Of a DNA stretch of 64,000 nt, positions 40,138 to 56,268 are shown piece after piece. Location: contig CBDCRP010000003.1 in the NCBI GenBank assembly GCA_965221165.1, positions 1,696,001 to 1,760,000 of the forward strand, written 5' to 3'. The notes below the pieces were generated by a model. The model did no database searches, was not told the origin of the DNA, and saw only the letters and a program-made list of their open reading frames with translations. Position numbers and translations under genes: made by a program. This DNA is from a bacterium. Lineage in GTDB: Bacteria > UBA8248. Within the stretch, counting starts at the first letter, position 1, and each line of letters begins with the position of its first letter.

Positions 40138-40257
40138 GATTCTCGATTCTCCTCGACTCACCCGCGATGCGCGCGCAAAACTTCTTTCGCCCCTCCGGAG
40201 GGATGAATCGTCCTTCCGGAGGGGCAGGGGGAAAGGTGTTCCGGGTTATCTCTCGCC

Positions 40258-41253
40258 TTACTTCATCAAATTAAAGTAGGCGTTCTCCACCAACTGGGTG
40301 TCGATGTGGGCGGTGACGTCGATGCGCTTGGGCAGCTTGCCCTTCTTCACGCTGACTTCCACTCCGTCCTGCACTTCCTTGATGTCCCTGTGCGTGATCA
40401 TCGCGCGATCCCAGCGCATGAACCTGTAGAGATTGCTCTTCACCTTCTTGAGGTCGAAGTCGAAGCCCTGGCTCTTCCAGAACTCCTGCACTATCTTCGT
40501 GGACTCATCCCGGTTGCGGTTCAGGAAACGCATAGCCCGAACGTGGGCGTTCATGAAACGCTGCGCGCCGTCCGGGTTTTCCTTCTTGATGTAGGACCAC
40601 GAACTCGTCAGGAAGACGGGGGAAGTGTAGCCCAGCAGATCGTCATACTCCTTCGGCCCCATGACCATCCGGCCCAGGCCCTTGTCGACGATAATCGAAC
40701 CCCAGGGCTCCCAGGTCAGTCCCGCATCCAGCGCGCCGGTCTCGAAGGCGGCGGGCAGCGAACCGGTTTTCGTGTTGCGGATCTTGAAGTCCTTGTCCGA
40801 CAAGCCGATACGCGAGAGATACGTCATCCAGGTGGCCCAGGTGCCCGTACCCATCTGCGCGCCCACGGTCTTGCCCTTGAGGTCCATCACCGATTTCGTG
40901 GTCTTGTCCTTCACGGGGACGAGCACCATGTTCTGGTTCCCGTAGCGGTTCAGCGCGATGCCCACGACGTCCAGTCCGCGCGCCGCGATTTGGCCCACGC
41001 GGGAGCCGCGCGTGCTGATGATGTCGGCGGTGCCGCCGATGAGAGCGTCAATCAGCGCGCGGGGACTCGTGACCCTGCGCTTCACGTTGACCCCCTCGGC
41101 TTTGTAATACCCCTTCTTCTCCGCGATGTAGGGGATGGCCGCGTGCGAGGTGTTGTCGTGAATCAAGTTGATGACGCCTTTCGCCGCCAGCGCATTCGTG
41201 GTCATTCCGAATACAGCGATAGTTGCAATCAAAACCAGGCCGAACTTTTTCAT
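40258..41253 (-). CDS. ABC substrate-binding protein (SsuA/NMT1 type)
   Basis: Signal peptide, IAEKKGYY..EG, DLKGKTVG, TWEP. Confidence 0.9.
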   Translation of the reverse strand: MKKFGLVLIATIAVFGMTTNALAAKGVINLIHDNTSHAAIPYIAEKKGYYKAEGVNVKRRVTSPRALIDALIGGTADIISTRGSRVGQIAARGLDVVGIALNRYGNQNMVLVPVKDKTTKSVMDLKGKTVGAQMGTGTWATWMTYLSRIGLSDKDFKIRNTKTGSLPAAFETGALDAGLTWEPWGSIIVDKGLGRMVMGPKEYDDLLGYTSPVFLTSSWSYIKKENPDGAQRFMNAHVRAMRFLNRNRDESTKIVQEFWKSQGFDFDLKKVKSNLYRFMRWDRAMITHRDIKEVQDGVEVSVKKGKLPKRIDVTAHIDTQLVENAYFNLMK

Positions 41254-41335
41254 CTTACTCTCCTCCACGTTTGAGAACGCATTGCCTCTACGTCAACCAG
41301 AGATAAAACGACCAAAACCGACCAAGAGCTCCTTT

Positions 41336-41698
41336 TTACTCTCTCGCCGGGTGAAATACGGCCAGCAGCTTTACGTCCTTCTCTCCTCCCGTCATGCTCC
41401 GGTGCATGGTTTTCCGGGGAAGAAAAATGCAGTCTCCCCCTCGAAACTCGATGCTCTTATCCTCGAGTTCGTATCGGCCTTCGCCATCGATGATGTAGAT
41501 GAGTTCGTCTTCTTCGTGATCGTGCCATTCGTGGGTCTCGCCCGGACGAAAAACCGTCAGCCAGGCGTCGACGTTCCAGCCGTGGTCTTCTCGCGAAGTC
41601 ATCCGCCAGGCTTGCGCTCCACCGTCGAGCACTTTGTGCTTCCGGGTTTCCGGCCTTATCAGGCAGGCTTCGCGTTCGGCCAATCCGTCATCTCCCAA
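41336..41698 (-). CDS. Cupin-domain protein
   Basis: HEWHDHEEDELIYIIDG...GDCIFLP...H. Confidence 0.85.
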   Translation of the reverse strand: MGDDGLAEREACLIRPETRKHKVLDGGAQAWRMTSREDHGWNVDAWLTVFRPGETHEWHDHEEDELIYIIDGEGRYELEDKSIEFRGGDCIFLPRKTMHRSMTGGEKDVKLLAVFHPARE

Positions 41699-41814
41699 GC
41701 CGTTACTCGGCGAGCGCGATGAAACCGCCGCTCATGGTTTTTGGATGATATTCGAAGATGCTATCACTTGACCCGAAAATGTCAATCGCGCGGGCATACC
41801 CGGGCTCACCACCC

Positions 41815-43296
41815 TCAGGTCTTTTTCGCGCGCCCTCTGCGGAAGATACCGTCGTAGAAGGTGAACACGGAAACGGCCATCAGAAGGGTGGCGATGGGGC
41901 TCGAGAGGAAATACCAGAACGGCTTGTTCTCGAATGTGATCAGGGCGCGGCGCAGATTCTCATCGGCCAGGGAGCCGAGGATGATGGCCAGAACCATGGG
42001 CGCCAGCGGAAGGCCCAAGCTTCTGAGAGCATAGCCGACGAAGCCCGAGGCCAGCATCACGTAGACGTCGAACATGCTCAGGCGCACGGCGTACGCCCCC
42101 AGGATGCAGATGGGGATGATGATGGGCATCAACAGGGTGCGGGGCAGGCTGTAGAGCTTCACCGCCGGCTTCACCAGCAGGAGGCCGAACACGTACATCA
42201 GGAAGTTGGCCACGATGAGCGCCCCGTAGATGAAATACACCAAGCCGGGGTTTTCGATGTTGATCGTGGGGCCCATCACCACGTGCTTGAGTTCCAGAGC
42301 GGCCATGAAGGCGGCGGCGGGCGGACTGCCCGGAATCCCGAGCGTGAGCGTGGGGAGAATGGTTCCTCCGATACAAGCGTTATTCGCCACCTCCCCGCAC
42401 ACGATGCCCTCGTAACTCCCCTTGCCGAACTTCGCGCGTTCTTCGGGACTCGCCCGGCGCTTGCCCACGTCGTAGGCCACGAAGGCGGCTATGTTCCCGC
42501 CCGCACCGGGGATGGCGCCAATCACCGTGCCGATGATGCCCGAGCGCACCGATGAGCGGGCGTATCGCCAGAGCATGGAGAAGGGAGGCACCACACGGTC
42601 CACTTTTTCGGGAATCGTGGACGGCTCTTTCTGGGGAAGCACCCAGAGAACCTCGGTGAGGCCGAAAAAACCGATGATCACCGGAATATAGCTGATGCCG
42701 TCCTCTAAGAGCACGTTTCCGAAGGTGAAGCGCGGAAAGCCGTATATGTTGTCGAGCCCGACGAAGGCGATGAGGAGCCCCAGCCAGCCGGATATCCAGC
42801 CCTTGATGGGGGCCTCGCCCGAGGTGAGCGTTCCGCAAATGGCGATCCCCCAAAGTGCCAGGAGGAACATCTCCCAGGAGCGGAACTGCAGGGCGATGAG
42901 CAAAATGAGGGGGATGAACGCCACCAGAAGCAGGATGCCCACCCAGTTCCCGAGAAACGAAGCCACCAGGGCGGTGCCCAGCGCCAGTCCGCCCTCCCCC
43001 CTTTGGGCCAGGGGGTACCCCTCGATCATGGTGGGAACGGCGGCGGGCGTGCCGGGGATGTTGATCAATACAGCGGTGATCGAACCGCCGAAGACGCTCG
43101 CCGTATACACGCCCAGCAGGAACATGATGGCCACGTCCTGGCTCATCTGGGTGGAAAGCCCGATCAGGAGCACCATGGACATGGTCGTCGAGATGCCCGG
43201 CATCGACCCCCAGAGCAATCCCAGGATGGTGCCCAGCATGCAGATGAACACCAGATACGGGTTCAGCGCATGGATGAGTTGCTCGATAAAAAACAT
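41815..43296 (-). CDS. TctA tripartite tricarboxylate transporter permease
   Basis: GSMPGI, GGSITAVLINIPGTP, EVANNA, GIPGSPP. Confidence 0.93.
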   Translation of the reverse strand: MFFIEQLIHALNPYLVFICMLGTILGLLWGSMPGISTTMSMVLLIGLSTQMSQDVAIMFLLGVYTASVFGGSITAVLINIPGTPAAVPTMIEGYPLAQRGEGGLALGTALVASFLGNWVGILLLVAFIPLILLIALQFRSWEMFLLALWGIAICGTLTSGEAPIKGWISGWLGLLIAFVGLDNIYGFPRFTFGNVLLEDGISYIPVIIGFFGLTEVLWVLPQKEPSTIPEKVDRVVPPFSMLWRYARSSVRSGIIGTVIGAIPGAGGNIAAFVAYDVGKRRASPEERAKFGKGSYEGIVCGEVANNACIGGTILPTLTLGIPGSPPAAAFMAALELKHVVMGPTINIENPGLVYFIYGALIVANFLMYVFGLLLVKPAVKLYSLPRTLLMPIIIPICILGAYAVRLSMFDVYVMLASGFVGYALRSLGLPLAPMVLAIILGSLADENLRRALITFENKPFWYFLSSPIATLLMAVSVFTFYDGIFRRGRAKKT

Positions 43297-43299
43297 GGC

Positions 43300-43941
43300 C
43301 TACCCCGAGCCCGGCAGCGGAATCCTGAAACCGTAGCGAAACGCGGCGGCCAGAACCATAGTCGATACGAAAGAGACGACGAGACACCGCAGAAAGGTCT
43401 TCGGCCAGAAGATGCGAAGGACAATCGCCAGCATGGGGATGGTGACGGCCTCGAAGCTGCTGAAACCGAACCGCCATCCCGCAATCTCCAGCGGGATCGC
43501 GACCTCGAACGTCACCCAATCGATGAGAAATATATAGAAAACCACCACGCCCATCAGGATGAGCGCCCATTGGTTCTCATAATCGGAGAAATAACCGCGC
43601 AGCAACTCTCCAGGCGAGAAATCCATACTCTCCCAGGCGCCCTTTTTGCGGGCGCTCGCCGCGAGACCCACGGTCATGGCCAGCAGGCTCAAGCCCGTCA
43701 AGACGGGCATGAAGCCCGGTGCGGTGAAGATGTTGCTCTCCGGGTTGGGCATGAGCAGCCCGAGGATAATGGCGAGAACCGCCACGGCGCCCACGAAGAT
43801 CGCCACCACCAGATCCTTTCCCGGAGTGGCGCCGTCCGCTCCCTCTTCGGAGAGAAGGGGGGAGGCGACGGAACTTTCCGGCTCATCCGCAGCTTCTGCA
43901 GGCGGATAGGTCTTGCGGTCATCGTCGTTCGAAGAAACCAT
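43300..43941 (-). CDS. TctB-like small permease
   Basis: TM segments, APGFMP, FRIPLP; between tctC and tctA. Confidence 0.78.
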   Translation of the reverse strand: MVSSNDDDRKTYPPAEAADEPESSVASPLLSEEGADGATPGKDLVVAIFVGAVAVLAIILGLLMPNPESNIFTAPGFMPVLTGLSLLAMTVGLAASARKKGAWESMDFSPGELLRGYFSDYENQWALILMGVVVFYIFLIDWVTFEVAIPLEIAGWRFGFSSFEAVTIPMLAIVLRIFWPKTFLRCLVVSFVSTMVLAAAFRYGFRIPLPGSG

Positions 43942-43989
43942 GCAACTCTCTCGGCATAGAACAAATCAAGGAAAACGGCCTTCCCGATA

Positions 43990-44016
43990 GGGCCGCCTCG
44001 TCTCTGGGGCGGCCCT
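43990..44016. terminator. Intergenic hairpin after tctC
   Basis: GGGCCGCCTC...GGGGCGGCCC inverted repeat. Confidence 0.45.
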
Positions 44017-44046
44017 ATCGGGGCAGGCATTGCGTGATAAGCCCCT

Positions 44047-45195
44047 CTAGCTCATGCGGGGCTTGTATCCCTTGGGTGGCCACCAGGCGTCGAAATCCTT
44101 CGGGTCGGGCAATCCGAGTTCCTTGGGTCCGCGCACCTTTTTGCCGATGTGCTTCTGCAGCTTGAGCAACGTCGCAGCGCTCAGGCACTCGAGCTGCGCG
44201 GCCCGGCGATCCGCGTCCGCCCCCACGCGGATGTCGATCTGGAAGTACTTGCGCGTGGCGATTTTCCCGAAGGCTTCGGAATTGGCGGCCGCGATCCAGA
44301 CCGGCTTGATCTTCTCGAGCACGTCGACGGGCGTCTGCCGCCTCAGGGCGATGCTGTACATCCCGCCCATCGGTAACAGGGCCTTGAGCGCGGGTATGTA
44401 GTTGGCGATGTTGTAAGCCTTCCCGTAATCGGGGATGTCCAGATCCTTCGGCCCCGTGTGCATGAGGTTTCTCAGTTTGCCCGCCCGCAGGAATTCGACG
44501 TGTTCGTGCACGCCTCCACCGGCGATGTCCACCTCGCCTTGTAAGCCCGCGACGGTTGCGGGTTTTCCGCCCTTGTAGGGCACGAAGCGCAATTCGATGC
44601 CCGCTGCGTCCGCGACGGTGGCGCCCACCTCGTGCCAGATGCTGCCCACGCCCGAAGTCGAGATGGTGAGCTTGCCGGATTTCTTCTTGGCCGCGGCGAC
44701 TACGTCGTTGAAGGTCTTGAAAGGCGAGTCGGGCCGCACCGACCAGCTCGCGAGCGAAGCAGCCGCCGCGAAGTGCTGCCAGTCCACCCACGCCGCCGAA
44801 TCCGCGTATCCCATCGGCCGGACGAATTTGTTGTAGTTCCCGGCGCCCAGCCAGGTGTAGCCGTCCGCCGCCTTGTTGAGCACGTACCGGGTGGCTATCC
44901 CTCCCACCGAGCCGGGACGGTTGATGACGTTGACGGGCCAGCCGGTAGAGCGGGCCATCTCGCCGCACAGGGTGCGGATGACGGTGTCCGTGCCGCCGCC
45001 CGCGGCGTACATCACCACCCCCGTGATGGGGCGCGCGGGCCAGTTCGCGGCGCTCGCCTTTCTGGTCGTGAACACCATGGGTGCCACCGCGGCGGCGCCG
45101 GCGACCCCAAGGGTCTGGATAAAGCTCCTGCGCGTGAGATCGGATGATTCGGGGATGATGATTTCGGGATGCTCATGAAACTCTTTGCTGGACAT
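44047..45195 (-). CDS. TctC/Bug substrate-binding protein with Tat signal
   Basis: TRRSFI twin-arginine motif, WPARPI, AAGGGTD, DGYT, VPYKGG; start set to ATG 45195. Confidence 0.9.
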   Translation of the reverse strand: MSSKEFHEHPEIIIPESSDLTRRSFIQTLGVAGAAAVAPMVFTTRKASAANWPARPITGVVMYAAGGGTDTVIRTLCGEMARSTGWPVNVINRPGSVGGIATRYVLNKAADGYTWLGAGNYNKFVRPMGYADSAAWVDWQHFAAAASLASWSVRPDSPFKTFNDVVAAAKKKSGKLTISTSGVGSIWHEVGATVADAAGIELRFVPYKGGKPATVAGLQGEVDIAGGGVHEHVEFLRAGKLRNLMHTGPKDLDIPDYGKAYNIANYIPALKALLPMGGMYSIALRRQTPVDVLEKIKPVWIAAANSEAFGKIATRKYFQIDIRVGADADRRAAQLECLSAATLLKLQKHIGKKVRGPKELGLPDPKDFDAWWPPKGYKPRMS

Positions 45196-45545
45196 GATGC
45201 TCTCCTCCGGTTGAGATGAAAGGGCCGCTTGAGATAAAACGGCGACCGGGCACAGAACGTCGTCTGGCGCACGAACTGTCCAGAATTTCCTATTCTGTTT
45301 TTCGACTGACTGGATTTTATCACAAAAGGCGCACGGCATTGCAAACCATAATTTTGGGGACGCGGGCGAGAACTCTCTTCCGGTCGCGTCGGTATTATTT
45401 ATAACCGCATTCTCTCGATAAAACCGGGGAATAGTTCTTCATCCAATCGTAACCCGCTCAACACCCAATCGTAATTTGGCTGTGATAAAATAGGCCGAAT
45501 GCGAAAAAGAGATGAATTCCACCTCACCAGAAGGAAACGCGAGAT

Positions 45546-46574
45546 ATGAAGCTAGGCGTATTGACGGGGGGCGGAGACTGCCCCGGCCTGAACGCGGTCA
45601 TCCGCGCGGTGACGGCATCGAATTTTCATCGCGGGAGCCATACGTTGGGCATTCGCCGTGGCTGGCGCGGCCTGGTGGATGGGGATTTCGTCGAAATTAC
45701 GGGCCCGATGATCTCGGGTATCCTCGATAAGGGCGGAACCATTCTGGGCTCCTCGAGAACGAACCCCACAAAAGACCCGGCCATGCTCGAACAACTCAAG
45801 GAAAACTGGCGCGCCTCGCGCATCGACGGCCTCATCGCCATCGGGGGGGATGATACGCTGAGCGTCGCCGCCTTCCTGAACAAGGAGGGCATGAACGTCA
45901 TCAGCGTGCCCAAGACGATAGACAACGACATCGGCTTCACGGACTACTCGTTCGGCTTCCACACCGCCGTCGGCGTCATCACCGACGCCATCGACCGCCT
46001 GCGCACCACGGCGGAGGCGCACGACCGCGTCATCATTTTAGAAGTCATGGGACGCCACTCGGGCTGGCTCGCCACCTATGCGGGAATCGCCGGCGGCGCG
46101 GACCTCATCCTCGTGCCCGAGCGTCCCTTCGACATCGAGGAGGTTGTCTCTGTTCTCAAGGCGCGCTTCGCACGCAGGCGCAACTTCGCCAACGTGGTCG
46201 TGGCCGAGGGCGCAAAGCCCGAAGGGATAGATAACTACATCACGCGCAGCGAGGCGGTGGATGAGTTCGGGCACGTGCAGCTTGGCGGAGTCGGCGAATA
46301 CCTCGCCCAGCAAATCGGGGACAGGATGAACGTGGATACGCGCGCCGTCATCCTGGGACACATCCAGCGAGGCGGCTCCCCCGTGCCCTACGACAGGGTG
46401 CTGGCGACGCGCCTGGGCGTGCGGGCGAGCGAATTCGCGCACGAGGGAACCTGGGGCGTCATGGCCGCGCTGCAGGGCCGCGACATCAACCCGGTTCCAC
46501 TGGGAGAAGTGCTCGGAAAGGTGAACACGCTGCGCGAGGATTTCTTCGACACCTCGGCGCTGTTTTTCGGATAG
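45546..46574 (+). CDS. pfkA: 6-phosphofructokinase (group III; likely PPi-dependent)
   Basis: LTGGGDCPGLN, GGTILGSSR, GGDDT, PKTIDND, EVMGR, LGHIQRGG. Confidence 0.93.
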   Translation: MKLGVLTGGGDCPGLNAVIRAVTASNFHRGSHTLGIRRGWRGLVDGDFVEITGPMISGILDKGGTILGSSRTNPTKDPAMLEQLKENWRASRIDGLIAIGGDDTLSVAAFLNKEGMNVISVPKTIDNDIGFTDYSFGFHTAVGVITDAIDRLRTTAEAHDRVIILEVMGRHSGWLATYAGIAGGADLILVPERPFDIEEVVSVLKARFARRRNFANVVVAEGAKPEGIDNYITRSEAVDEFGHVQLGGVGEYLAQQIGDRMNVDTRAVILGHIQRGGSPVPYDRVLATRLGVRASEFAHEGTWGVMAALQGRDINPVPLGEVLGKVNTLREDFFDTSALFFG

Positions 46575-46747
46575 CCCGCCGAGCATCTCCCCGCATTTCC
46601 GCGCATATGCCGGTGCGGCGTTTCGCCCGGACCCCCTAGACTCGGCAAAGTACCGAACGCGGGAGGGTGGTGCGCCCGCGCCGGGGGTGAATTCGGGAAA
46701 GTAATTTTCGGGAATTTGTCGAATTTTGTCGAAATTTTCAGATATTC

Positions 46748-47098
46748 GGCGGCGACCGGCTGGTCGGCGGCGAGGGCAAAGACCGCATCTACGGCCGCTA
46801 GGGCAAAGACACCCTCACCGGCGGAACCGGGGACGACACGCTCACCGGCGTGGCCGGGGCCGACACCTTCGTGTTCAACCCCGATGACGGGAACGACACG
46901 ATCGCCGATTTCGAAAACGGCGCGGACAAGATCGATCTCTCCGCCGTCTCCTCGATAAGCGGGTATTCCGACCTCACGATCACGCAGGAGGGCGACGACA
47001 CGAAGATCGACTTGAGCGCCCACGGCGGGAGCGAGATAATACTCGATAATTTCACCTCGACCGATCTGGACGCGTCGGATTTCGAGTTTGGGATGTAG
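46748..47098 (+). pseudogene. Truncated RTX/hemolysin-type Ca-binding repeat gene
   Basis: GGxGxD repeats with no start codon, in-frame TAG at 46799-46801, ends DASDFEFGM*. Confidence 0.7.
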
Positions 47099-47209
47099 CG
47101 CGCATCCGGGCCGCTTGCACGTGCCGGCTTGAAACATCAAAATCGCTGCAACCATGAAATCCCCGCCATCTCATAATGGAGACGACGGGAATGGAAAAGG
47201 AGATACCCC

Positions 47210-47620
47210 ATGACGGACGAAACCAAAATAGGCACTGAGTTTGGCGACGTATTATATGGCGGCGAAGGCGACGACGAATTGTATGGCGGCGCGGGCAAAG
47301 ACCAGCTGTTCGGTGGTGATGGGGACGACACCATCGAGGGCGGCGAGCGCGGCGACATACTCACCGGTGGGGCCGGGGCCGACACCTTTGTATATTCCAC
47401 CGGTGACGGAAGAGACACGATCACCGACTTCACCGACGGGGAAGACAAGATCGACCTCTCCGGGACCGGCATCACCAGTTTTGACGACCTGACGTTCAGG
47501 CAGGATGGGAACGACGCCGTGATCGACCTCGGCACCAGCGACAATCCCGACGACGTGATCCTGCTCGAGAACTTCGATATGAACAACTTCGATGCATCGG
47601 ATTTCGACTTTGGGATGTGA
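47210..47620 (+). CDS. Small RTX nonapeptide-repeat protein (T1SS substrate-like)
   Basis: RBS AAGGAGA; [43 protein letters not shown]. Confidence 0.85.
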
Positions 47621-47684
47621 TACGCATCCGGGCCGCTCGCCCGGGCCTGTCCGGTCCGGGAACGCAAAAGCCGACGACAACATG

Positions 47685-47722
47685 ATCCCCGCTGTCATGT
47701 CAGGAGACGGCGGGGATTTTTT
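47685..47722 (+). terminator. Rho-independent terminator
   Basis: ATCCCCGCTGTC...GACGGCGGGGAT followed by TTTTT. Confidence 0.7.
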
Positions 47723-47896
47723 GTGTCTCGGGATGAAAAATTCTCTACCCCTCACTTGCGCACAGAGACATCCATCCTCAGGCCATGAGAAGCAGAGTAA
47801 TACCGATTGACGAAGGGAGGGATTGGCGCGTCATTCCGGCGTAGGCCATTAAATGGCTACGAGAGATGAGATGGGCCGCCGGGTCTGCCATATCGA

Positions 47897-47991
<95 letters not shown>

Positions 47992-48088
47992 GCGTCATGT
48001 GGCTACTCGGACAATCGCGAATCGACCATGCGGGGATTTGTATATCACGGACAATGCTGAACTGTCAGTCCGGCATTCACTTTTCGCC

Positions 48089-48117
48089 TTGACTTTTCCT
48101 CTCACTTTTTCGATGAT
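48089..48117 (+). promoter_or_regulatory. Putative sigma70 promoter
   Basis: TTGACT-N17-GATGAT upstream of the candidate ncRNA. Confidence 0.55.
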
Positions 48118-48123
48118 CCCAAG

Positions 48124-48298
48124 TACGTCAGAAAGGAGGTGATCCTAATATGAAAATACACTGTAGGGACGAGGTGACCGGCGCCTAGGGGAGAGAGCCC
48201 TGAGGAGATTCCCCCGGGTTCATTCTTCGCCCAGGCGAATCCCCACCAGGTCACCGAACGATGTGAAACCCCGGTCCGAGAGGGCCGGGGTTTTTCAC
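48124..48298 (+). ncRNA. Candidate structured RNA / leader with extended SD, 12-codon ORF and terminator
   Basis: AGAAAGGAGGTGATCC at 48130-48145; helix GGTGACC/GGTCACC enclosing two hairpins; terminal hairpin with T-run. Confidence 0.5.
48263..48298 (+). terminator. Rho-independent terminator
   Basis: CCCCGGTCC-GAGA-GGGCCGGGG-TTTTT. Confidence 0.8.
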
Positions 48299-48363
48299 GT
48301 CGCGCCATTTGCGAAACTCTCACTTTTCACATCATCTGTTTTCAAGGATAAGGAGCGCGTTTC

Positions 48364-48822
48364 ATGTCTCAGACGAGTTGGACGGTCTATCTTTCAGGAG
48401 AAGTGCACACCGACTGGCGCGAGCGAATCACCGAGGGCGCGGAGAAGGCGGGGCTGCCGATCACCTTTCTCGCCCCCGTCACGGACCACGACGCGAGTGA
48501 CGATTGCGGCGTATCGATTCTCGGCGGTGAGGAAAAACCGTTCTGGAAAGACCGCAAGGGCGCGGGCGTGAACGCCATCAGAACGCGCACGCTGATTGAA
48601 AAGGCCGACGTGGTGGTCGTTCGCTTCGGGGAGAAATACAGGCAGTGGAACGCCGCGTTCGACGCGGGCTACGCGGCGGCTCTGGGAAAAGCCGTTATCA
48701 CCTTACACGACCCGGGCCACACCCATGCGCTCAAGGAAGTCGACGCCGCCGCCATGGCCGTGGCCGAAGAACCCGAGCAGGTGGTGCGGATTCTGGGCTA
48801 CGCCATCAACGGAACTTTATAG
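48364..48822 (+). CDS. YtoQ family protein (nucleoside 2-deoxyribosyltransferase-like fold)
   Basis: VYLSGEVHTDWR, HDASDDCG, KYRQWNAAFDAG, HALKEV. Confidence 0.92.
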   Translation: MSQTSWTVYLSGEVHTDWRERITEGAEKAGLPITFLAPVTDHDASDDCGVSILGGEEKPFWKDRKGAGVNAIRTRTLIEKADVVVVRFGEKYRQWNAAFDAGYAAALGKAVITLHDPGHTHALKEVDAAAMAVAEEPEQVVRILGYAINGTL

Positions 48823-48995
48823 AGGGCGTATATATTTGCCCCTCTCCGGGGTCTTCGCCTGCGCGCATTTATCCCGAATCAACGGCGCCACACCCTGAGC
48901 CACCTTGGGCGTGGGACGCATATCTGGGGCTGTTGAAAAAGCCCCCCCAAAAAAACAGGGAATGGATTTCTCAATCGACATACGCTTATAAAATG

Positions 48996-49299
48996 ACTCC
49001 TCCCCTTGAGGGTCGGGCATCTCCTCTTCGGGATGCCCGACAGCAATACGTGCAGCAAGAAATTCACTCCCCCCTTGAGGGGGAGTCAGCAAGGCAAGGA
49101 CGAAGTCCGCAGCCGCGCTGGTGGGGGGTGAATTCCGACTGAGAAAGGAGGATTTGCGCCTTTTGTAGGGGCCGCCCCTCCTCGGGACTGCCCCACCGTT
49201 CGCGAACGGCCCCTACGGAGAGAGCCAAATAGAGCCGTCATTCCGGTGTCAAACCCGATCAATGAGGGAGGTCAAACCCGACCGAGGAGCGAGGGTTTG
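48996..49299. repeat. REP-like palindrome cluster
   Basis: CTCCCCCCTTGAGGGGGAG, GTAGGGGCCG...CGGCCCCTAC, GTCATTCCGG and tandem GTCAAACCCGA modules. Confidence 0.8.
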
Positions 49300-49663
49300 C
49301 GACCGGGGAGGCGTCGTGCTCCTTTTTAATACTCGAACACCGTGGGGCCGTCCACTTTTTAGGCCAACGCCTACGACGGCGGCGACCAGATAACGTGACG
49401 CTTTGCAGATCGGCGGCGCCGGCTTCGATGTCATGAAATCGGTGAGCGCATGAGCCGGGAATGAAACCGTAATGGGGGCGCTTGGGTCAGGTCCGAGTTT
49501 AGGTTCGAACCACCATCGGGAACGTGAGGCTGGTCGCCCGATCCGATTATTGCGAAAATAGTATGATTCTCCTAAAATTCCCCCCGGAATCATCGGGAGG
49601 AGAGGAAGGGTCGTTTTTTCGGGCCATTCGCAGTTATTTTGTCCGACCAGAGAGGAGGCTCCG

Positions 49664-50692
49664 ATGCGGGCCATGGTTCTGCATGAATGGGGAGGTCCCC
49701 TGACGCTCGAAACGGTGCCCGACCCGGCGCCGGGTATCGGAGAAGTCGTGCTGCGCGTGCGCGCCTGCGCGCCGGATCAGTTCGACGTGACCATCCGCGC
49801 GGGCCGGATCGGCGGAAAGCTGCCCCTCATCATGGGGCACGAGATCGCGGGCGAGGTGGCCGCGCGGGGGCCGGGCGTCGAGGGATGGGAGGAGGGCGCC
49901 CGCGCGGTCGTCCACGCCTATCTCACCTGCGGGCGGTGCCGGTTTTGCCTGCTCGGTCGGGTGACCCTCTGCGAGAATTTCCGGGGCTACTTCGGGGTGC
50001 ATCGAGACGGCGGCTACGCCGAGTACGTGCGGGTCCCGGCGGAGAACCTGTGCGCCATTCCCGAAGGAGTGGGGTACGCCGAGGCCACGACCATCGTGAG
50101 CCCGGTGGCGACCCCGCTCAAGGCCATCAAAACGCGCGCGGGCGTGCGCCCGGGGGATGACGTGGTCGTCGTCGGCGCCTGCGGCGGCGTGGGAATTCAC
50201 GCCGTCCAGATCGCCAAGGCCTTCGGCGCGCGCGTCATCGCGGTGGACATCGACGACGCCAAGCTCGCCCGGGCCCGGGAGTTGGGCGCGGACCACGCGG
50301 TGAACGGCCTGGAGGAGGACTTCGCCGCGGTCGTGAGGGAGGTCACGCACGGCAAGGGAGCCGAGGCCGTGCTGGAGTTCGTGGGCACGGAGCAGACGTT
50401 GCCGAAGAGCTTCGCTTCGCTGACGAGGACGGGCGTCCTCGTCGTCGTGGGCTTTCAACCGGGAACGGTCTTCGCGAGCGACCCCACCCGCTTCGTGGAC
50501 GATGAGATCACGGTGACCGGCTCGCGCTACGTGAATCGCGCGGAGTTGGCCGAGGCCGCCGCCTGGGTCGGGTCGGGCCGGGTGAAGCCGGTCGTTTCGG
50601 GGACGTACCCCCTGGCCGAGGTGGAGAAGGCGCTGGCCGACCTCTCGGAAAACCGGGTGGTCGGTCGAGCGCCGATTCTGATCGATTCGTGA
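49664..50692 (+). CDS. Zinc-binding MDR alcohol dehydrogenase family protein
   Basis: GHEIAG, structural Zn CGRCRFC...C, DGGYAEY, GACGGVG. Confidence 0.9.
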   Translation: MRAMVLHEWGGPLTLETVPDPAPGIGEVVLRVRACAPDQFDVTIRAGRIGGKLPLIMGHEIAGEVAARGPGVEGWEEGARAVVHAYLTCGRCRFCLLGRVTLCENFRGYFGVHRDGGYAEYVRVPAENLCAIPEGVGYAEATTIVSPVATPLKAIKTRAGVRPGDDVVVVGACGGVGIHAVQIAKAFGARVIAVDIDDAKLARARELGADHAVNGLEEDFAAVVREVTHGKGAEAVLEFVGTEQTLPKSFASLTRTGVLVVVGFQPGTVFASDPTRFVDDEITVTGSRYVNRAELAEAAAWVGSGRVKPVVSGTYPLAEVEKALADLSENRVVGRAPILIDS

Positions 50693-50737
50693 GAGCGCGT
50701 CCCGCGCAGTTCTCTTGAGACGCTTTCATTTCAGAAT

Positions 50738-50779
50738 CACTCCCTTGAGGGTCAAACCCGACCGGTGAGGGAGGGTTTG
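50738..50779 (+). repeat. Truncated REP joined to a GTCAAACCC hairpin module
   Basis: CACTCCCTTGAGG followed by GTCAAACCCGACCGGTGAGGGAGGGTTTG. Confidence 0.7.
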
Positions 50780-50866
50780 CGTACCGTTGTTTTCCTCGTC
50801 CGTAGCAATCGCTCCTTCATCAGTCGCGTCAAACATTCATTCATCAATCGTGTTTGACCCCACCGA

Positions 50867-51709
50867 TTAGGTGATCGCCGGTGACCAGTCGTATATCCGC
50901 TGCAAGGCGCCTCCCATGAGATCCGCGCGCTCGTCATCGCTCAGGCGGTCCGTGAGGCGGAACGGCGTGACACCCTGCTCGTAGGTCAGCAGATTGACCG
51001 CGCGGGTCCAGTCGGTGCCCCACAGGCACCGATCGAAACCGAATGCGTCGAAGACCCGGCGGAGCGGGTCCCAGAGATCGTCGTAGGGGTAGGGCTCACA
51101 GGACAGCGTGCAGGCGCCGGTGATCTTCACGGCGACGTTGTCGTGATCCGCCAGATCCAGGAGCTTGGGGAGGTCGGCGAAGGGCGCAGGCGGCGCCGGC
51201 GGGTCGAAAGGCTGCTCCAGGCCCAGGTGATCGATGACCAGCATCGTGCTCGGGTGCTCGCGCGCATACCGCGCGGCATGCTCCAGCAAGCCCCAGCACA
51301 TGAGATTGACCGGCAGCGAGGCGCGGGCGGCGGCGGCGAGAACCCGGTCGATGCCCGGATGCTCCGGATCGAGGGGCAGGCCGGGGTTCAGCATGATCCG
51401 GACCCCCACCGCCCCCTCCTGCGCGGCCCAGTCGGCGATCGTTTCCGCGGCGGCGGGATCGGTCGGGTCGACCGGCTTGATCAAGGCGAACCGGCCCGGA
51501 TGCGCGGCATGAACCTCGAGCGCATAGCCGGCATCGTAGCGGTACAGGGCGAACGGCGAGATCAGCAGGGCGGCATCGACGCCGACCGTATCCATGGCCG
51601 CGACCATGCCGTCGCCGGTGACCTCGGGCGGTCCCGGCAGAACTCCGGCCCACGGCCGCCCCGGGCGGTCCCTTTCATAGGCGTGGACCTGAGCGTCGAT
51701 CGTCGGCAT
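50867..51709 (-). CDS. Amidohydrolase_2 family protein
   Basis: IDAQVH, VGVR, VIDHLG, NVAVK, RCLWGTDW. Confidence 0.88.
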   Translation of the reverse strand: MPTIDAQVHAYERDRPGRPWAGVLPGPPEVTGDGMVAAMDTVGVDAALLISPFALYRYDAGYALEVHAAHPGRFALIKPVDPTDPAAAETIADWAAQEGAVGVRIMLNPGLPLDPEHPGIDRVLAAAARASLPVNLMCWGLLEHAARYAREHPSTMLVIDHLGLEQPFDPPAPPAPFADLPKLLDLADHDNVAVKITGACTLSCEPYPYDDLWDPLRRVFDAFGFDRCLWGTDWTRAVNLLTYEQGVTPFRLTDRLSDDERADLMGGALQRIYDWSPAIT

Positions 51710-51952
51710 GCCTTCTGTCCCCGTTCCCGGCGGGCAAGGGCGCAATGATTCCGTTTCGGTACGCTACCACATCGGCCACTCGAAGCGCACGGCTCGTCAC
51801 GGTCTCACACTCCCGGGTTCCGGCCGGGATAAAACCCTAAAGCGTTTTGGACCAGTACGGAGCTTGCCCCGACCTCCCGTGAGGAACTGCTTACGGAAGG
51901 GGTCGAGCGCCTTGTCGAGGCGCTCGGTGTAGCCGGAGAAAAATAATTGCAA

Positions 51953-52078
51953 AAGGGCCGGCAGGACGTGCTTCTCCGGCACGGAGCGGTACGCCGCGAC
52001 GGTGCCCGGCTGTAAGCGCGCGCCGGCGTGGACGCGCATGAAGCGCTCGGCCGGTCCGGCCACGGTGAGTTCCGCCTC
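51953..52078 (-). pseudogene. Remnant of a tyrosine integrase core-binding (SAM-like) domain
   Basis: ELTVAGPAERFMRVHAGARLQPGTVAAYRSVPEKHVLPAL resembles the TVxELAERxxxxH...T...Y...HILPALG pattern; no catalytic domain. Confidence 0.55.
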
Positions 52079-52094
52079 GGGCGGCGCGGGCGCA

Positions 52095-52402
52095 GGGTCC
52101 GTGAGCGGCTCGCCTCGGCGCAGGCATGTCTGGTGAAGATGGAAGTCAACGCTCCGGAGACGCCCCCTGCGCCGGAGTAGGAAAATTCCACTTTTTTCGC
52201 ATATTTTTTCTCTCGCGCATTTGCCCGCAGCACACCGCGCCTGCCCGCATTTGCGTGAGAAAGGGCGCTACTTTCGGATGGCGCCGAAGCTGAATCCCGT
52301 GATGAGGTGCTTCTGGATAAGGACGCCGAGGATGACCACGGGAACGGTGATGACGGTTCCTATCGCCGCCCGGGGACCGTAGAGCCTTCCCTCCGGCGCG
52401 CT
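52095..52402. repeat. Direct repeat copy 1 (orphan 3' end of the ABC permease plus downstream DNA)
   Basis: Aligns with 56269-56579 with scattered substitutions; encodes EGRLYGPRAAIGTVITVPVVILGVLIQKHLITGFSFGAIRK*. Confidence 0.93.
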
Positions 52403-55400
52403 AGGCGTCGCCGACGACGACCAGCAGATCCTTGGTGTTGACCGTGGTGCCGGCCGGCGCAACGACCTCCTGGACGACGCCGCTCCGCTCGGCGCAGATC
52501 ACGGTTTCCATCTTCATCGCCTCGATCGCCACCAACACGTCGCCCTCCTCGACCGCCTCGCCTTCGGCGAAGAACACCTTGACCACCATCCCCGGCATCG
52601 GCGCGCCGAGGTGGCCGGGGTCGCCTTCCTCGGCCTTGGGCAGCGCCGTGCTCGCGGCGGCGGCGCTGCGGTCGGCGACGCGCACCGTCCGGGGCTGTCC
52701 GTTCAACTCGAAGAAGACCGTGCATTCGCCCTTCCGGTCGGTCTCGCTGCGCGCGAGATAGCGGATGAACAGGGTGCGCCCGCGCTCGATGTCGACGGCG
52801 ATCTCCTCGCCCGGCTCCATGCCGTAGAAATAAACCGGGGTCGGCAGCACGCTGACGTCGCCGTATTTGCGCCGCGCGGCGGCGTAGTCGGCGAAAACCT
52901 GCGGGTACATCAGCCAGGACGCGAACTCGGCATCGCTGATCGGGCGCTGGGCCTTCCTTTCGGCTTCCTCGCGGCAGGCTTCGAGATCGGCGTCGGACAT
53001 CACCGAGCCGGGCCGCACGGTGATCGGCTCCCTTCCTTTGAGGATCTTCTCCTGCAGGGCGCGCGGGAATCCGCCGTGCGGCTGCCCCAGCTCGCCCGCG
53101 AACAGCGAGACCACCGATTCCGGAAAGGCAATCTCGCGCTCGGGGTCGGCCACGTCTTCCGGCGTCAGCCCGCCCGTCACCATCATCAGCGCCATGTCGC
53201 CGACCACCTTGGAGGAGGGCGTGACCTTCACGATGTCGCCGAACATGCGGTTGACCTCGGTATAGGTCCGCGAGACCTCCGGCCAGCGCTGGTTGTCGAT
53301 ACCCAGCGCCCGCGCCTGCTCGCGCAGATTGGTGTACTGGCCGCCCGGAATTTCGTGGTTGTAGACATCCGACGTGCCGGCGCGGAAATCGCTCTCGAAG
53401 GCGCGATAGAGGTTTCGCACCTGCTCCCAATAGGTGGACAGCGTCATCACCGTATCGGGGTCGATTCCGGGGTCGCGCGCGGAGTGGCGCAAAGCCGCGG
53501 TGATCGAGCCGAAGCTCGGCTGCGAGGTGAGCCCGCTCATCGAATCCATCGCCGCATCCACGGCATCCACCCCGGCCTCCACCGCGGCGAGCACGCTCGC
53601 GGCGGAAATCCCGCTGGTGTCGTGGGTGTGGAAGTGGATGGGGATGCCGATCTCCTGCCTCAGGGTTTCGACGAGGATCCGGGCCGCCGCCGGCTTGCAC
53701 AGACCCGCCATGTCCTTGAGGCCCAGGATATGGGCGCCCGCGGCCTCGAGCTCGCGGGCGAGCGCGACATAGTACCCGAGGTCGTACTTGGTGCGGTTGG
53801 GGTCGGTGATGTCGCCGGTGTAGCAGATCGCCGCCTCGCAGAGCTTGCCGGTCTCCAGCACCGCGTCCATCGCCGGGCGCATGTTCTCGACCCAGTTGAG
53901 CGAATCGAAGATGCGGAACAGGTCGACCCCGTTCTCGGCCGATTGGCGCACGAAATAGCGCACCACATTGTCGGGATAGGTGGTGTAGCCGACGCCGTTC
54001 GACGCGCGCAGCAGCATCTGGGTCAGGAGGTTGGGCATCGCGGCGCGCAGCCGTTCGAGCCACGTCCAGGGACATTCGTCGAGAAAGCGCATCGCCACGT
54101 CGAAGGTCGCGCCGCCCCAGCATTCGACCGAGAGAAGCTGGGGCAGCAGCCGCGCATAGGCCGGCGCGATGGCGAGAAGGTCATAGCTCCGGACCCGTGT
54201 CGCCAGCAGCGACTGATGCGCGTCCCGGAACGTGGTGTCGGTCATCAGCACCCGTTCCTGGTCGCGCATCCACCGGGCGAAACCCTCAGGGCCGAGGGCA
54301 TCGAGCAGCTGGCGCGAACCGTCCGGGACCTCGACGCCGGGGACCTCCGGCGCGCTCGGAGTCTGGCGCGTCGGCGGTTCGGGCCGGCCTTCGACGGCGC
54401 CGTTGCCGTTGACGATCACCTCCCCCAGATAGCGCAGCAGCCGGGTCGCGCGGTCCCGCCTGTAGACGAAGCTGAACAACTCCGGCGTCTCGTCGACGAA
54501 GCGCGTCGTGCAAGCGCCTTCCAGGAACTGCGGATGGCCGATGACGTTCTCGAGAAAGGCGAGGTTGGTGGCGACGCCGCGGATGCGGAATTCACGGAGC
54601 GCCCGGTCCATCCGCCGGATCGCCTCATCCAGCGTCGGCGCCCAGGCCGTCACCTTCTCCAGCAGCGAGTCGTAGAACGGCGTGATCCGCGCGCCCGAAT
54701 AGGCGGTGCCGCCGTCTAGGCGCACGCCGAACCCGGTAGCGCCGCGATAGGCGGTGAGCACCCCGTAATCCGGAATAAAGTTGTTCTCCGGGTCCTCGGT
54801 GGTCACCCGGCATTGCATGGCATGGCCGTTCACCCGGATGTCACCCTGGCTCGGGATTCCGCTCTCAGGCGCGCCGATCACGGCCCCGTCGGCGATGCGG
54901 ATCTGCGCCTTCACCAGGTCGACGCCGGTCACCACCTCGGTGACCGTGTGCTCGACCTGGATGCGCGGATTGACCTCGATGAAGTGGAACGCGCCGGTGT
55001 CGTCGTCGACCAGGAACTCGACGGTGCCGGCATTGTCGTAGCCCACCGCGCGGCCGATCTCGAGCGCGCTCTCGTGGATCGCCGCGCGGGTCGCCGCGTC
55101 GAGATAATGCGCCGGCGCGCGCTCGACGATCTTCTGGTTGCGCCGCTGCACCGAGCAGTCCCTCTCGTGGAGATGCACCAGGTTGCCGTGATTGTCGCCG
55201 AGGATCTGGACCTCGACGTGCCGCGCGCGGCGAATCAGTTTTTCGAGATAGACCTCGTCGTTCCCGAACGCCGCCAGGCACTCGCGCCGCGCGGCCTCGA
55301 CTCCGTCGGCGAGCTCGGCCTCGCTCTCGATCGCGCGCATGCCGCGCCCGCCGCCGCCCCAGCTCGCCTTGAGCATGACGGGAAAACCGACCTCCCGGGC

Positions 55401-55865
55401 GAGACGCGCGGCCTCCTCCGGGTCGCGGGGGAGCGGGCCGGTCGCCGGAACCACCGGAACGCCGGCCGATTGCGCGATCTCCCGCGCCGCCACCTTGTTG
55501 CCGAGTGCGCGCATGATCTCGGGCCGCGGGCCGACGAAGGCGACATCTGCGTTCGCACACGCCTCGGCAAAGTCCGGGTTCTCGGACAGGAAGCCATAGC
55601 CCGGGTGGATCGCATCGGCGGCGTTCTCGCGCGCAACGCGGATCACCTCGTCGATGCTGAGGTAGGCCTCGATCGGGCCCATTCCCCGGCCCACCGGATA
55701 GGCCTCGTCGGCCTTGAAGCGGTGCAGCGCGAAGCGGTCCTCTTGTGAGTAGATCGCGATCGTCATGATGCCGAGCTCGACCGCGGCGCGCAGCACGCGG
55801 ATGGCGATTTCGCTCCGGTTGGCGACCAGGATACGGCGGAAATTGGTCTGCGGCTTGCTAATCAT
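52401..55865 (-). CDS. pyc: Pyruvate carboxylase
   Basis: Biotin carboxylase (ANRSEIAIR, HPGYGFLSEN), CT domain (RDAHQSL, WGGATFD, HTHD), biotinyl EAMKM. Confidence 0.98.
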   Translation of the reverse strand: MISKPQTNFRRILVANRSEIAIRVLRAAVELGIMTIAIYSQEDRFALHRFKADEAYPVGRGMGPIEAYLSIDEVIRVARENAADAIHPGYGFLSENPDFAEACANADVAFVGPRPEIMRALGNKVAAREIAQSAGVPVVPATGPLPRDPEEAARLAREVGFPVMLKASWGGGGRGMRAIESEAELADGVEAARRECLAAFGNDEVYLEKLIRRARHVEVQILGDNHGNLVHLHERDCSVQRRNQKIVERAPAHYLDAATRAAIHESALEIGRAVGYDNAGTVEFLVDDDTGAFHFIEVNPRIQVEHTVTEVVTGVDLVKAQIRIADGAVIGAPESGIPSQGDIRVNGHAMQCRVTTEDPENNFIPDYGVLTAYRGATGFGVRLDGGTAYSGARITPFYDSLLEKVTAWAPTLDEAIRRMDRALREFRIRGVATNLAFLENVIGHPQFLEGACTTRFVDETPELFSFVYRRDRATRLLRYLGEVIVNGNGAVEGRPEPPTRQTPSAPEVPGVEVPDGSRQLLDALGPEGFARWMRDQERVLMTDTTFRDAHQSLLATRVRSYDLLAIAPAYARLLPQLLSVECWGGATFDVAMRFLDECPWTWLERLRAAMPNLLTQMLLRASNGVGYTTYPDNVVRYFVRQSAENGVDLFRIFDSLNWVENMRPAMDAVLETGKLCEAAICYTGDITDPNRTKYDLGYYVALARELEAAGAHILGLKDMAGLCKPAAARILVETLRQEIGIPIHFHTHDTSGISAASVLAAVEAGVDAVDAAMDSMSGLTSQPSFGSITAALRHSARDPGIDPDTVMTLSTYWEQVRNLYRAFESDFRAGTSDVYNHEIPGGQYTNLREQARALGIDNQRWPEVSRTYTEVNRMFGDIVKVTPSSKVVGDMALMMVTGGLTPEDVADPEREIAFPESVVSLFAGELGQPHGGFPRALQEKILKGREPITVRPGSVMSDADLEACREEAERKAQRPISDAEFASWLMYPQVFADYAAARRKYGDVSVLPTPVYFYGMEPGEEIAVDIERGRTLFIRYLARSETDRKGECTVFFELNGQPRTVRVADRSAAAASTALPKAEEGDPGHLGAPMPGMVVKVFFAEGEAVEEGDVLVAIEAMKMETVICAERSGVVQEVVAPAGTTVNTKDLLVVVGDA

Positions 55866-56268
55866 ATCGCTCCCTGTGCGCCCACGCGGAGCCTCCGCCC
55901 GCCGGTCCGCGGTTCGGGCTCCGGTAACCGTCCGGACCGGTTGGCGTCTCGTGAATCATCCGGGTCGAAAACCTGTACCAAACCGGTGTCCGCCAAGGTT
56001 GGAGGCCGAGTCGTCGACCTGTCCCATCCTTCATGACATGGGCGCTCTCGCCCCTGATACCGAAGCCAGTCTGCGTCGGCTCTTCCCGGCAACTTCTTAG
56101 AACCCGCAGAGGACGGATTTTCGCATGTTGTTGCGTAACCGGCCAACGCCACCCGGACAAGTCCGCTCCGGTGAGGGTTCGGAGGGAGCGGGGCCGGCTC
56201 GAGGGAGGTGGAGAGGTCGAAGGAAGCGCTGGGATCGGGTGAAGGGCGAGCGCCAGAGGCCGAAAGCC

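Follow-up and report, generated by a model that had tools for sequence, protein, structure and literature searches.

What does a small RNA do that carries an exact complement of the 16S rRNA 3' end, continues into an open reading frame (ORF) of only 12 codons and closes with its own terminator? The question is raised by a locus at positions 48089-48298 of a 64,000-nucleotide (nt) stretch of DNA from a bacterium of the UBA8248 lineage (assembly GCA_965221165.1, contig CBDCRP010000003.1, positions 1,696,001 to 1,760,000), hereafter called the window; features lie on the + strand unless stated otherwise. We conclude that the RNA is real and strongly conserved, that it is a homologue of the actinobacterial small RNA (sRNA) Ms_IGR-5 and an analogue of the alphaproteobacterial mRNAs rreB and rreR, and that it occurs here in a phylum where it was previously unannotated. 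It is probably an independently transcribed small mRNA of ~173 nt, with a promoter and a terminator of its own. As to its role, we give a probability of about 60% to a translated mini-mRNA of the rre/Ms_IGR-5 kind, docking on the 30S subunit and centred on the ribosome rather than on a neighbouring gene.

The element that defines the locus is the extended Shine-Dalgarno (SD) sequence AGAAAGGAGGTGATCC at 48130-48145, 16 nt that complement the 3' end of 16S rRNA exactly. The initial annotation, made from the sequence alone, had compared it with a typical 16S end; because the single 16S gene detected in the organism's own genome ends in ...GGATCACCTCCTTTCT, followed by AAGGAG, the complementarity is exact over all 16 nt (16/16), the position of the mature end being deduced since the Rfam SSU model stops two bases earlier. 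The duplex with the 16S tail has a predicted energy of -28.4 kcal/mol, versus -9.2 for AGGAGG. By simple arithmetic, a given 16-mer is expected ~0.002 times in the 3.69-Mb genome. The 13-mer core has three sites there, namely the 16S gene, the RNA locus and one coding match limited to 13 nt, and the reversed-pattern control of this core gave 0 sites in the same genome. The third site, AAGGAGGTGATCC at 591306-591318 of contig C2 (minus strand), lies within a coding sequence and ~90 nt upstream of an ORF with a GTG start. It was rejected as a second copy of the RNA, being coding, not extending to 16 nt and giving no match to the covariance model described below. The view of the anti-tail stretch as a minus-strand relic of an rRNA operon was similarly discarded: the match is of 16 nt only and its flanks are unlike 16S.

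The distribution of the RNA was followed at two levels. By DNA search, the stretch was found in 22 of 22 genomes of the same genus and 33 of 36 of the same family; outside the order, the search returned two matches only, both confined to the terminator. A covariance model, R1, built solely from 31 sequences of the lineage (alignment A2), detects a single copy in the organism's own genome (187 bits, the next best hit being at 15.5 bits) and reaches 43 of the 51 genomes of the phylum, so that the conservation in relatives asked for by the initial annotation is there. The own family accounts for 37/41 of these genomes and a second family for 5/7, two other families giving 0/1 each; the phylum genomes without a match are 67-99% complete. 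Public records matching the RNA are titled Nitrospinota and Candidatus Tectomicrobia metagenome-assembled genomes (MAGs). For more distant groups, three locus sets were fetched by exact patterns, the size of each being a lower bound: at least 119 Mycobacteriales-type Ms_IGR-5 loci, at least 116 CC2171-type alphaproteobacterial loci, and a multi-phylum set of at least 115 loci carrying AAGGAGGTGATC, a gap of 23-31 nt, then GAGGTGRC-N7-TAG. All counts given below for these sets are among the matches listed. The multi-phylum set comprises Streptomyces, Kitasatospora and Nocardioides, together with records titled Acidobacteriota (Pyrinomonadaceae, Blastocatellia, Vicinamibacterales and Thermoanaerobaculia), Zixibacteria, Eisenbacteria, Acidimicrobiia and one Spirochaetia MAG; these taxa are those of the record titles, which for MAGs may be imprecise.

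Although trained on one lineage, R1 recognized 25 of the 25 actinobacterial loci tested, at the expected place and with 24-54 bits (E from 1.5e-12 to 1.8e-4). With the mixed multi-phylum loci it succeeded in 77 of 83 cases, six being without match at E <= 0.01, and with the alphaproteobacterial loci in 21 of the 25 tested, at 14-32 bits only. The top scores outside the lineage (54-68 bits) were those of the Pyrinomonadaceae-type members. Rfam itself calls a Streptomyces member (L322, one of the loci matched by R1) as RF02471, i.e. Ms_IGR-5, at 80.5 bits and one alphaproteobacterial member as CC2171 at 76.7 bits. To the members checked from Acidobacteriota, Zixibacteria, Eisenbacteria, the Spirochaetia MAG and Nitrospinaceae it assigned no family. 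In positions 40000-56000 of the window, Rfam at curated thresholds finds nothing except the tRNA-Ser gene. At permissive thresholds RF02471 aligns over its full length with 48125-48310 (23.5 bits, E 0.0017; the gathering score of 45 bits is not reached), and the alignment matches GAGGUGRC...UAG and GCGAAUxCCCC.CAG.UCACC. CC2171 (RF01867) scores 18.6 bits, below its cut-off of 75, over the SD sequence and the terminator only, and was found above cut-off neither in the organism's own genome nor in the 51 phylum genomes. The other sub-threshold matches (SNORD105 and others) span the SD sequence or the terminator only and were dismissed. The family that the initial annotation did not recognize can thus be placed, by the sub-threshold RF02471 match and by the homology seen with R1, and we regard the RNA as a distant homologue of Ms_IGR-5 outside the curated Rfam model. 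A match to a described Rfam family had been named at the outset as a reason to give up the claim of novelty, and the novelty is reduced to that extent.

The likeness to Ms_IGR-5 extends along the whole molecule. Shared are a 5' GUAC followed by a helix strand (P0) that abuts the 16-nt anti-16S stretch; a 12-codon short ORF (sORF) with E8-V9 and a UAG stop, a feature that is our own reading of the family; a helix P1 (GGUGRC.../...GYCACC), a helix P2 that holds the stop codon, a GAAUYCCC bulge, and a terminator. The differences are that Ms_IGR-5 belongs to another phylum, the Actinobacteria, that its apical region is unrelated, and that the terminator in the window has a U-tract; moreover the anti-tail stretch is exact in the window whereas Mycobacteriales members have 2-3 G.U wobbles, and the start is ATG in the window but mostly TTG in Ms_IGR-5. 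Ms_IGR-5 was first found in Mycobacterium smegmatis, where it lies between MSMEG_5794 and MSMEG_5795, is described as an expressed, discrete sRNA of Streptomyces and M. smegmatis, and is presented in a preprint as NAD-capped and 'yet uncharacterized'. Ribosome footprints on MS_IGR-5 are reported for two mycobacteria (PMC4974804).

A side observation concerns a group of loci titled Vicinamibacterales and Eisenbacteria (L317, L332, L337, L373, L388, L404 and similar ones), which carry a 14-codon variant, e.g. MDDHSTGSAEVASS. Their GTG or TTG start stands one base after GATCC, as in the alphaproteobacterial rre genes. These variants may bridge the two described groups.

Base changes within the anti-tail stretch are informative as to what is being maintained. 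In the 33 distinct sequences of the lineage, positions 1, 4 and 13 show A>G and position 16 shows C>A/G (six sequences), with a single C>T besides; the 119 actinobacterial sequences have A>G at 1, 3 and 13 together with C>T at 15 and 16. Changes that wobble pairing does not accommodate amount to two at position 1 (in the actinobacterial set) and to the six at position 16 (in the lineage). This pattern of A>G opposite U and C>U opposite G therefore argues for selection for 16S pairing, not merely for sequence. The same 16S end was found in four of the five distant carrier genomes checked, the fifth being without match, and pairing potential extends to position 1 in 56 and to position 16 in 68 of 77 sequences.

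Behind a 4-nt spacer (TAAT) comes the 12-codon sORF, 48150-48188, which runs from ATG to the TAG stop at 48186-48188 and reads MKIHCRDEVTGA, exactly as first described. Twelve codons, an ATG start and a TAG stop are found in 32/32 distinct lineage sequences. Among the matches listed, 116 of the 119 actinobacterial loci have 12 codons, two have 11 and one is without start. Their starts are TTG (92), ATG (21) or GTG (5) and their stops (n = 118) TAG (113), TAA (4) or TGA (1): whichever of ATG, TTG and GTG serves as start, the frame to the stop is preserved in 118 of 119 loci. In the multi-phylum set, where the fetch pattern did not fix the start and a start was counted within 9 nt of the SD sequence, 107 of 109 loci have an in-frame start and are open to the TAG, versus 22 and 0 in the control frames; the frame has 12 codons in 81 loci, 14 in 20, 11 in seven and 6 in one. 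The common ending is E-V-x-x-x-UAG, in a frame of 11-14 codons. From the conserved start, frame and length, we infer that ribosomes do run to the UAG.

These figures bear on two alternatives of opposite sense. The first is that the RNA is a non-translated 30S decoy or cap, the ORF-like frame being a structural side effect. It would make sense of the 16-bp duplex, and rreB is described as mostly 30S-bound and weakly translated (PMC5711450); helix P1 (see below) also accounts for the conserved E-V codons. What renders it unlikely is that the identity of the start varies, yet its presence, position and frame are kept (the 107/109 loci, versus 22 and 0), and that the length of the ORF shifts only in steps of three. 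The footprints on MS_IGR-5 (PMC4974804) and the dependence of rreB stability on the start codon, as described in PMC5711450, go in the same direction.

The second alternative, that of a gene for an active 12-residue micropeptide whose strong SD sequence serves high expression, was among the initial proposals. The part of it that stands is that a tiny ORF with an excellent SD sequence is kept across relatives and that the peptides are alike within clades (xxxxCRDEVxxx in this lineage). The peptide itself fares less well: E-V-(A/T) alone is kept, at a fixed distance from the stop, whereas the N-terminal residues (2-5) vary freely, and the codons of the conserved C-terminal half are made of bases of covarying helices, the E-V codons being conserved because their bases form P1. 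The RreB and RreR peptides are reported to be dissimilar and unstructured, overproduction to be without phenotype, and over-long SD sequences to have lowered translation in the rreB tests (PMC5711450). We hold the micropeptide reading to be quite improbable and consider a by-product the most likely status of the 12-residue peptide.

The body of the RNA is organized by three helices. P0 joins CGTC (48126-48129), which directly abuts the anti-tail stretch, to GACG (48168-48171, in codons 7-8). P1 pairs GGTGACCGG (48173-48181; RNA GGUGACCGG; codons 8-11) with CC-A-GGTCACC (48246-48255), in which A48248 is bulged. P2 pairs GCCTAGG (48183-48189), which contains the TAG stop (48186-48188), with its partner CCCAGGC (48230-48236). 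Between P2 and P1 the 3' side carries an asymmetric 9-nt bulge, GAATCCCCA (48237-48245; RNA GAAUCCCCA; family consensus ~RAAUYCCMA), and beyond P2 the long hairpin ends in a variable apical region (48190-48229) that is poorly alignable outside the genus and measures 18-100 nt across phyla. As a whole, the RNA (179 nt) has a folding energy of -75.3 kcal/mol (z = -4.07), none of 200 shuffles being as stable. In the lineage, 97.3% of the cells of P0, P1 and P2 are paired, versus 92.7% in shuffles and 33-53% in slid controls. Across phyla the values are 94.9%, 70.9% and 26-47%, with 470 doubly changed cells versus 127, although these pair counts are inflated, the cross-phylum alignment (A3) having been fitted to the covariance model. 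P1 is paired in 97.6% of cells in the lineage, shows compensatory A:U to G:C changes in six sequences and covaries across phyla; P2 is paired in 96.8% of lineage cells and all six of its pairs show compensatory changes across phyla. As to P0, three of its four pairs covary across phyla. It adjoins SD position 1 without spacer in 56 of 70 sequences, and its equivalent pair, counted independently in the 119 actinobacterial loci, is A:U in 64, G:C in 38, G:U in 5, unpaired in 9 and undetermined in 3.

Other pairings fared less well. The initial annotation had drawn a three-way junction, of which the closing helix GGTGACC/GGTCACC (48173-48179 with 48249-48255) is real and covaries. The two hairpins placed inside it, CCTAGGG/CCCTGAGG and GATTC/GAATC, the latter with CCGGG/CCCAGG, are paired in 84.2% and 83.9% of cells, versus 96.8% for P2 (that is, 84% against 97% for the long hairpin), and were set aside; within the genus they may nevertheless represent an alternative fold. 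A pseudoknot between apical loop and bulge does not hold as a general feature: the longest complement is 4.59 nt on average versus 4.12 in shuffled sequences, with p <= 0.05 in seven of 68 sequences. In the lineage, 9 of 14 sequences allow a pairing of GAAUCC with GGGUUY, though with little variation behind it. The idea that the 3' strand of P1 mimics the anti-SD was rejected as well, since its variable position tracks the 5' strand of P1 and not the SD sequence, with which it makes an A:C mismatch in 26 sequences.

The bulge deserves separate consideration. It is nearly invariant in the lineage and recognizable in all groups, including the Actinomycetota and Acidobacteriota members, which makes it the most conserved unpaired element across phyla after the SD sequence; the 30S-docking reading gives it no role. 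Several Gram-positive sRNAs have C-rich loops as their seeds. The RNA might then be a dual-function or purely trans-acting regulator, in which the C-rich bulge GAAUCCCCA would be a seed for G-rich mRNA sites or a protein site, and docking and translation would gate its exposure or the stability of the RNA. The accumulation of Ms_IGR-5 as a discrete sRNA, described for Streptomyces and mycobacteria, would agree with such a function. We nevertheless find it doubtful, as the bulge sits inside a stable stack and no link to Hfq or to another chaperone is known across these phyla.

That the locus is a transcription unit of its own is suggested by its two ends. A sigma-70-like promoter, with TTGACT (-35) at 48089-48094, a 17-nt spacer and GATGAT (-10) at 48112-48117, is the sole promoter-like site in 47600-48800, where shuffles would give 0.3; TTGAC and an xATxAT -10 box are aligned in 29 of the 30 rows of relatives, the remaining row ending at a contig edge. 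Similarity among relatives in the DNA search starts at ~48123, just 3' of the -10 element, and GTACGTC (48123-48129), at which conservation begins, is the predicted 5' end of the RNA. At the other end, the predicted intrinsic terminator (48266-48295) consists of AAACCCCGGTCC, a GAGA loop and GGGCCGGGGTTT. Its GC-rich hairpin of 12-13 base pairs (48266-48293), with compensatory changes in 8 of 12 pairs, runs into TTTTT, the T run extending to 48295; a simple terminator scan listed no site at all, not even this hairpin. Promoter and strong terminator are thus where the initial annotation had put them. As to transcripts, metatranscriptome contigs of 184, 162 and 186 nt from three studies cover 48137-48318, 48167-48308 and 48144-48330, with 93-96% likeness. 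Among the contigs listed, none covers the upstream spacer and none joins the RNA to the downstream gene ytoQ, which is found on separate contigs. RNA run X2 covers only the tRNA gene and ytoQ, its uncovered parts being uninformative. The claim of a self-contained transcript is therefore borne out as regards promoter, terminator and the contigs of relatives, which hint at a discrete RNA.

The gene ytoQ (48364-48822; 152 residues; PF11071 Nuc_deoxyri_tr3, E 2e-65) was the target in the third initial proposal, that of an attenuator, which we considered in the form of a ribosome-dependent leader or attenuator of this gene. Indeed the gene begins 66 nt past the RNA terminator, on the same strand, and an ORF that overlaps helices ahead of a terminator is reminiscent of classic attenuators. 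The linkage, found in 21 of 23 same-genus loci, is however absent from all ten distinct loci in other genera where the RNA is retained (0/10), and in other phyla the neighbours are unrelated. Since in addition there is no conserved alternative antiterminator pairing, and the RNA and ytoQ contigs are separate, the proposal was abandoned as highly improbable. We also noted that an 11-nt word, CTCTCACTTTT, is common to the promoter spacer (48100-48117) and to the region upstream of ytoQ (48318-48340), where it is followed by GATGAT and CATCAT, respectively. The CTCTCACTTTT-CATCAT arrangement at 48318-48340 might represent another promoter of similar make, serving ytoQ; in relatives, conservation of the word is not evident.

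The best described comparison for a ribosome-centred function is rreB of Bradyrhizobium (Hahn et al. 2017, PMC5711450). According to this report, it is a 165-nt mRNA with a 14-codon GTG-started sORF, located beside a tRNA-Gly gene, in which 17 nt are perfectly complementary to the 16S 3' end. It co-sediments with the 30S subunit, is translated weakly because of its long SD sequence and GTG start, and is stabilized by replacement of the start codon. Overproduction had no effect on growth in the experiments reported there, the function was called elusive, and the RreB and RreR peptides were described as unstructured and without mutual similarity (PMC5711450). The window RNA shares with rreB and rreR the stand-alone format (transcripts of ~165 nt) and the perfect complement of 16-17 nt ahead of an sORF, which has 14 or 18 codons in the rre genes; rreB, moreover, adjoins a tRNA gene. 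It differs in that the rre complementarity extends into the GTG's initial base whereas in the window the TAAT spacer precedes the ATG, although some Acidobacteriota relatives do carry GATCCAGTG, a complement reaching the start. By anatomy, the two would be RNAs of the same kind, 30S co-sedimentation, weak translation and start-dependent decay being known for rreB alone.

With CC2171, which is described as expressed in Methylorubrum (10.1101/2022.01.24.477521), the common features are a 5' GAAAGGAGGUGAUCC stretch with GUG immediately behind it, a closing helix, a body of several stems and a terminator; the alphaproteobacterial ORFs differ in varying in length and in being without the E-V-x-x-x-UAG end, and homology of the body is at most a possibility. 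The rpsU (bS21) mRNA of Flavobacteria is a strong-SD sensor of anti-SD availability, and forms the leader of an ordinary protein gene. The underlying idea, that a very good SD sequence reports the availability of the 16S tail, would be common to both, but the window RNA is stand-alone and has a tiny ORF.

From these elements, the 30S-docking mini-mRNA can be pictured as follows. P0 would close a loop of ~38 nt that holds the SD sequence and the AUG; both should therefore be accessible, so that a free 30S subunit would dock on the anti-tail stretch with very high affinity (the predicted duplex being of about -28 kcal/mol). With P0 starting at +19 relative to the AUG, the P0-P1-P2 stack would remain intact just outside the initiating ribosome. 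The intact stack and the over-long SD duplex might together act as a brake on clearance, which parallels the strong 30S binding and weak translation of rreB. An elongating ribosome would then unzip P0, P1 and P2 and terminate at the UAG buried in P2; every round of translation would unfold the whole body and probably tie the RNA's release and decay to translation, in the manner of rreB, where the start codon sets the half-life. The ribosome-binding small transcript with a tiny ORF, as first proposed, fits all the findings and the rreB precedent, as far as the latter is described (PMC5711450).

Several points weigh against this reading and limit the probability we give it. For this lineage, 30S binding, translation and transcript ends are all inferred. 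P0 is invariant within the lineage and never informative there, the pair counts of the cross-phylum comparison are inflated, and the RF02471 score falls short of the gathering score. The metatranscriptome contigs come from relatives in mixed samples and are blind to strand, ends and level, for which reason they provide only a hint of a discrete RNA. Hahn et al. judged simple sequestration of ribosomes by rreB unlikely (PMC5711450). Because the ATG of the window stands 4 nt past the duplex, unlike the overlapping GTG of rreB, translation may be efficient and the brake may not transfer. Lastly, the docking model leaves without explanation the near-exclusive use of UAG, the exact length of 12 codons, the conserved bulge and what the cell gains.

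A more specific proposal starts from the position of P0. As it begins with zero spacing after the pairing partner of the last 16S base, the 3' terminus of 16S would stack end-on against P0-P1 and form a nicked continuous helix. The RNA could accordingly cap the mature 3' end of 16S on idle 30S subunits, and translation of the sORF to the UAG in P2 would strip the cap and free the subunit. If this were true, the complex could measure a correctly matured tail and/or shield it from 3'-to-5' exonucleases. The proposal takes the family to be ancient, with at least the Actinomycetota, the Acidobacteriota, the Nitrospinota-like phylum and the MAGs titled Zixibacteria and Eisenbacteria as carriers. 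We put it forward as a tentative idea with a small chance of being right.

The remaining observations concern the surroundings of the locus. A tRNA-Ser(GGA) gene lies upstream on the minus strand (47899-47991), confirming the divergent arrangement noted at the start, and is a conserved neighbour in the lineage: all 57 lineage loci examined (32 distinct) have a gene for tRNA-Ser or tRNA-Cys 188-479 nt upstream, in the opposite orientation. Adjacency to tRNA genes is not a general rule, as among the matches listed it was seen in none of the 119 Mycobacteriales-type loci, in one of the 116 alphaproteobacterial ones and in nine of 109 from the multi-phylum set. In Kitasatospora and some Streptomyces (L321, L325, L331, L360, L372, L387, L395 and L406), the homologue stands 106-165 nt downstream of one or two same-strand tRNA-Met genes. 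In an AT-rich relative titled Nitrospinaceae (L048, 3099-3312, minus strand), the RNA is divergent from a tRNA gene, beyond which comes the signal recognition particle RNA gene, which places the locus within a cluster of genes for stable RNAs. Protein neighbours gave no functional clue: the Mycobacteriales loci have GCV_T-like, THAP4/nitrobindin-like, DUF1416 and rhodanese genes, unrelated to those of the window. In the latter, judged by eye, two small ORFs (46850-47098 and 47210-47620) are rich in GGxGxD-type repeats and look like calcium-binding proteins of the RTX type, a 342-residue ORF (45546-46574) resembles phosphofructokinase, and a 430-residue ORF on the minus strand (44047-45339) resembles a tripartite tricarboxylate transporter substrate-binding protein.

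What the locus adds can be stated against the literature. Small mRNAs with a full anti-16S stretch were described once, in Alphaproteobacteria, and Ms_IGR-5 is an uncharacterized actinobacterial sRNA of Rfam. Our literature search found nothing that links the Ms_IGR-5, CC2171 and rre families or extends rre beyond Alphaproteobacteria; the works found to cite Hahn et al. all come from that group, and judging by their entries none takes rre further. A clear homologue is now present in an uncultured, partly sponge-associated phylum, and one architecture recurs in several phyla: a helix abutting the anti-tail stretch, a frame of 11-14 codons ending in E-V-x-x-x-UAG, a stop codon within a helix, and a bulge. 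As far as the literature search reaches, this multi-phylum architecture, with P0 abutting the partner of the last 16S base, is not in print. An RNA maintained with such precision in bacteria so far apart ought to act on a fundamental step in the use of ribosomes, and the architecture offers a testable idea on idle 30S subunits. With M. smegmatis and Streptomyces as genetically tractable carriers, the question raised by this locus can be put directly to experiment.

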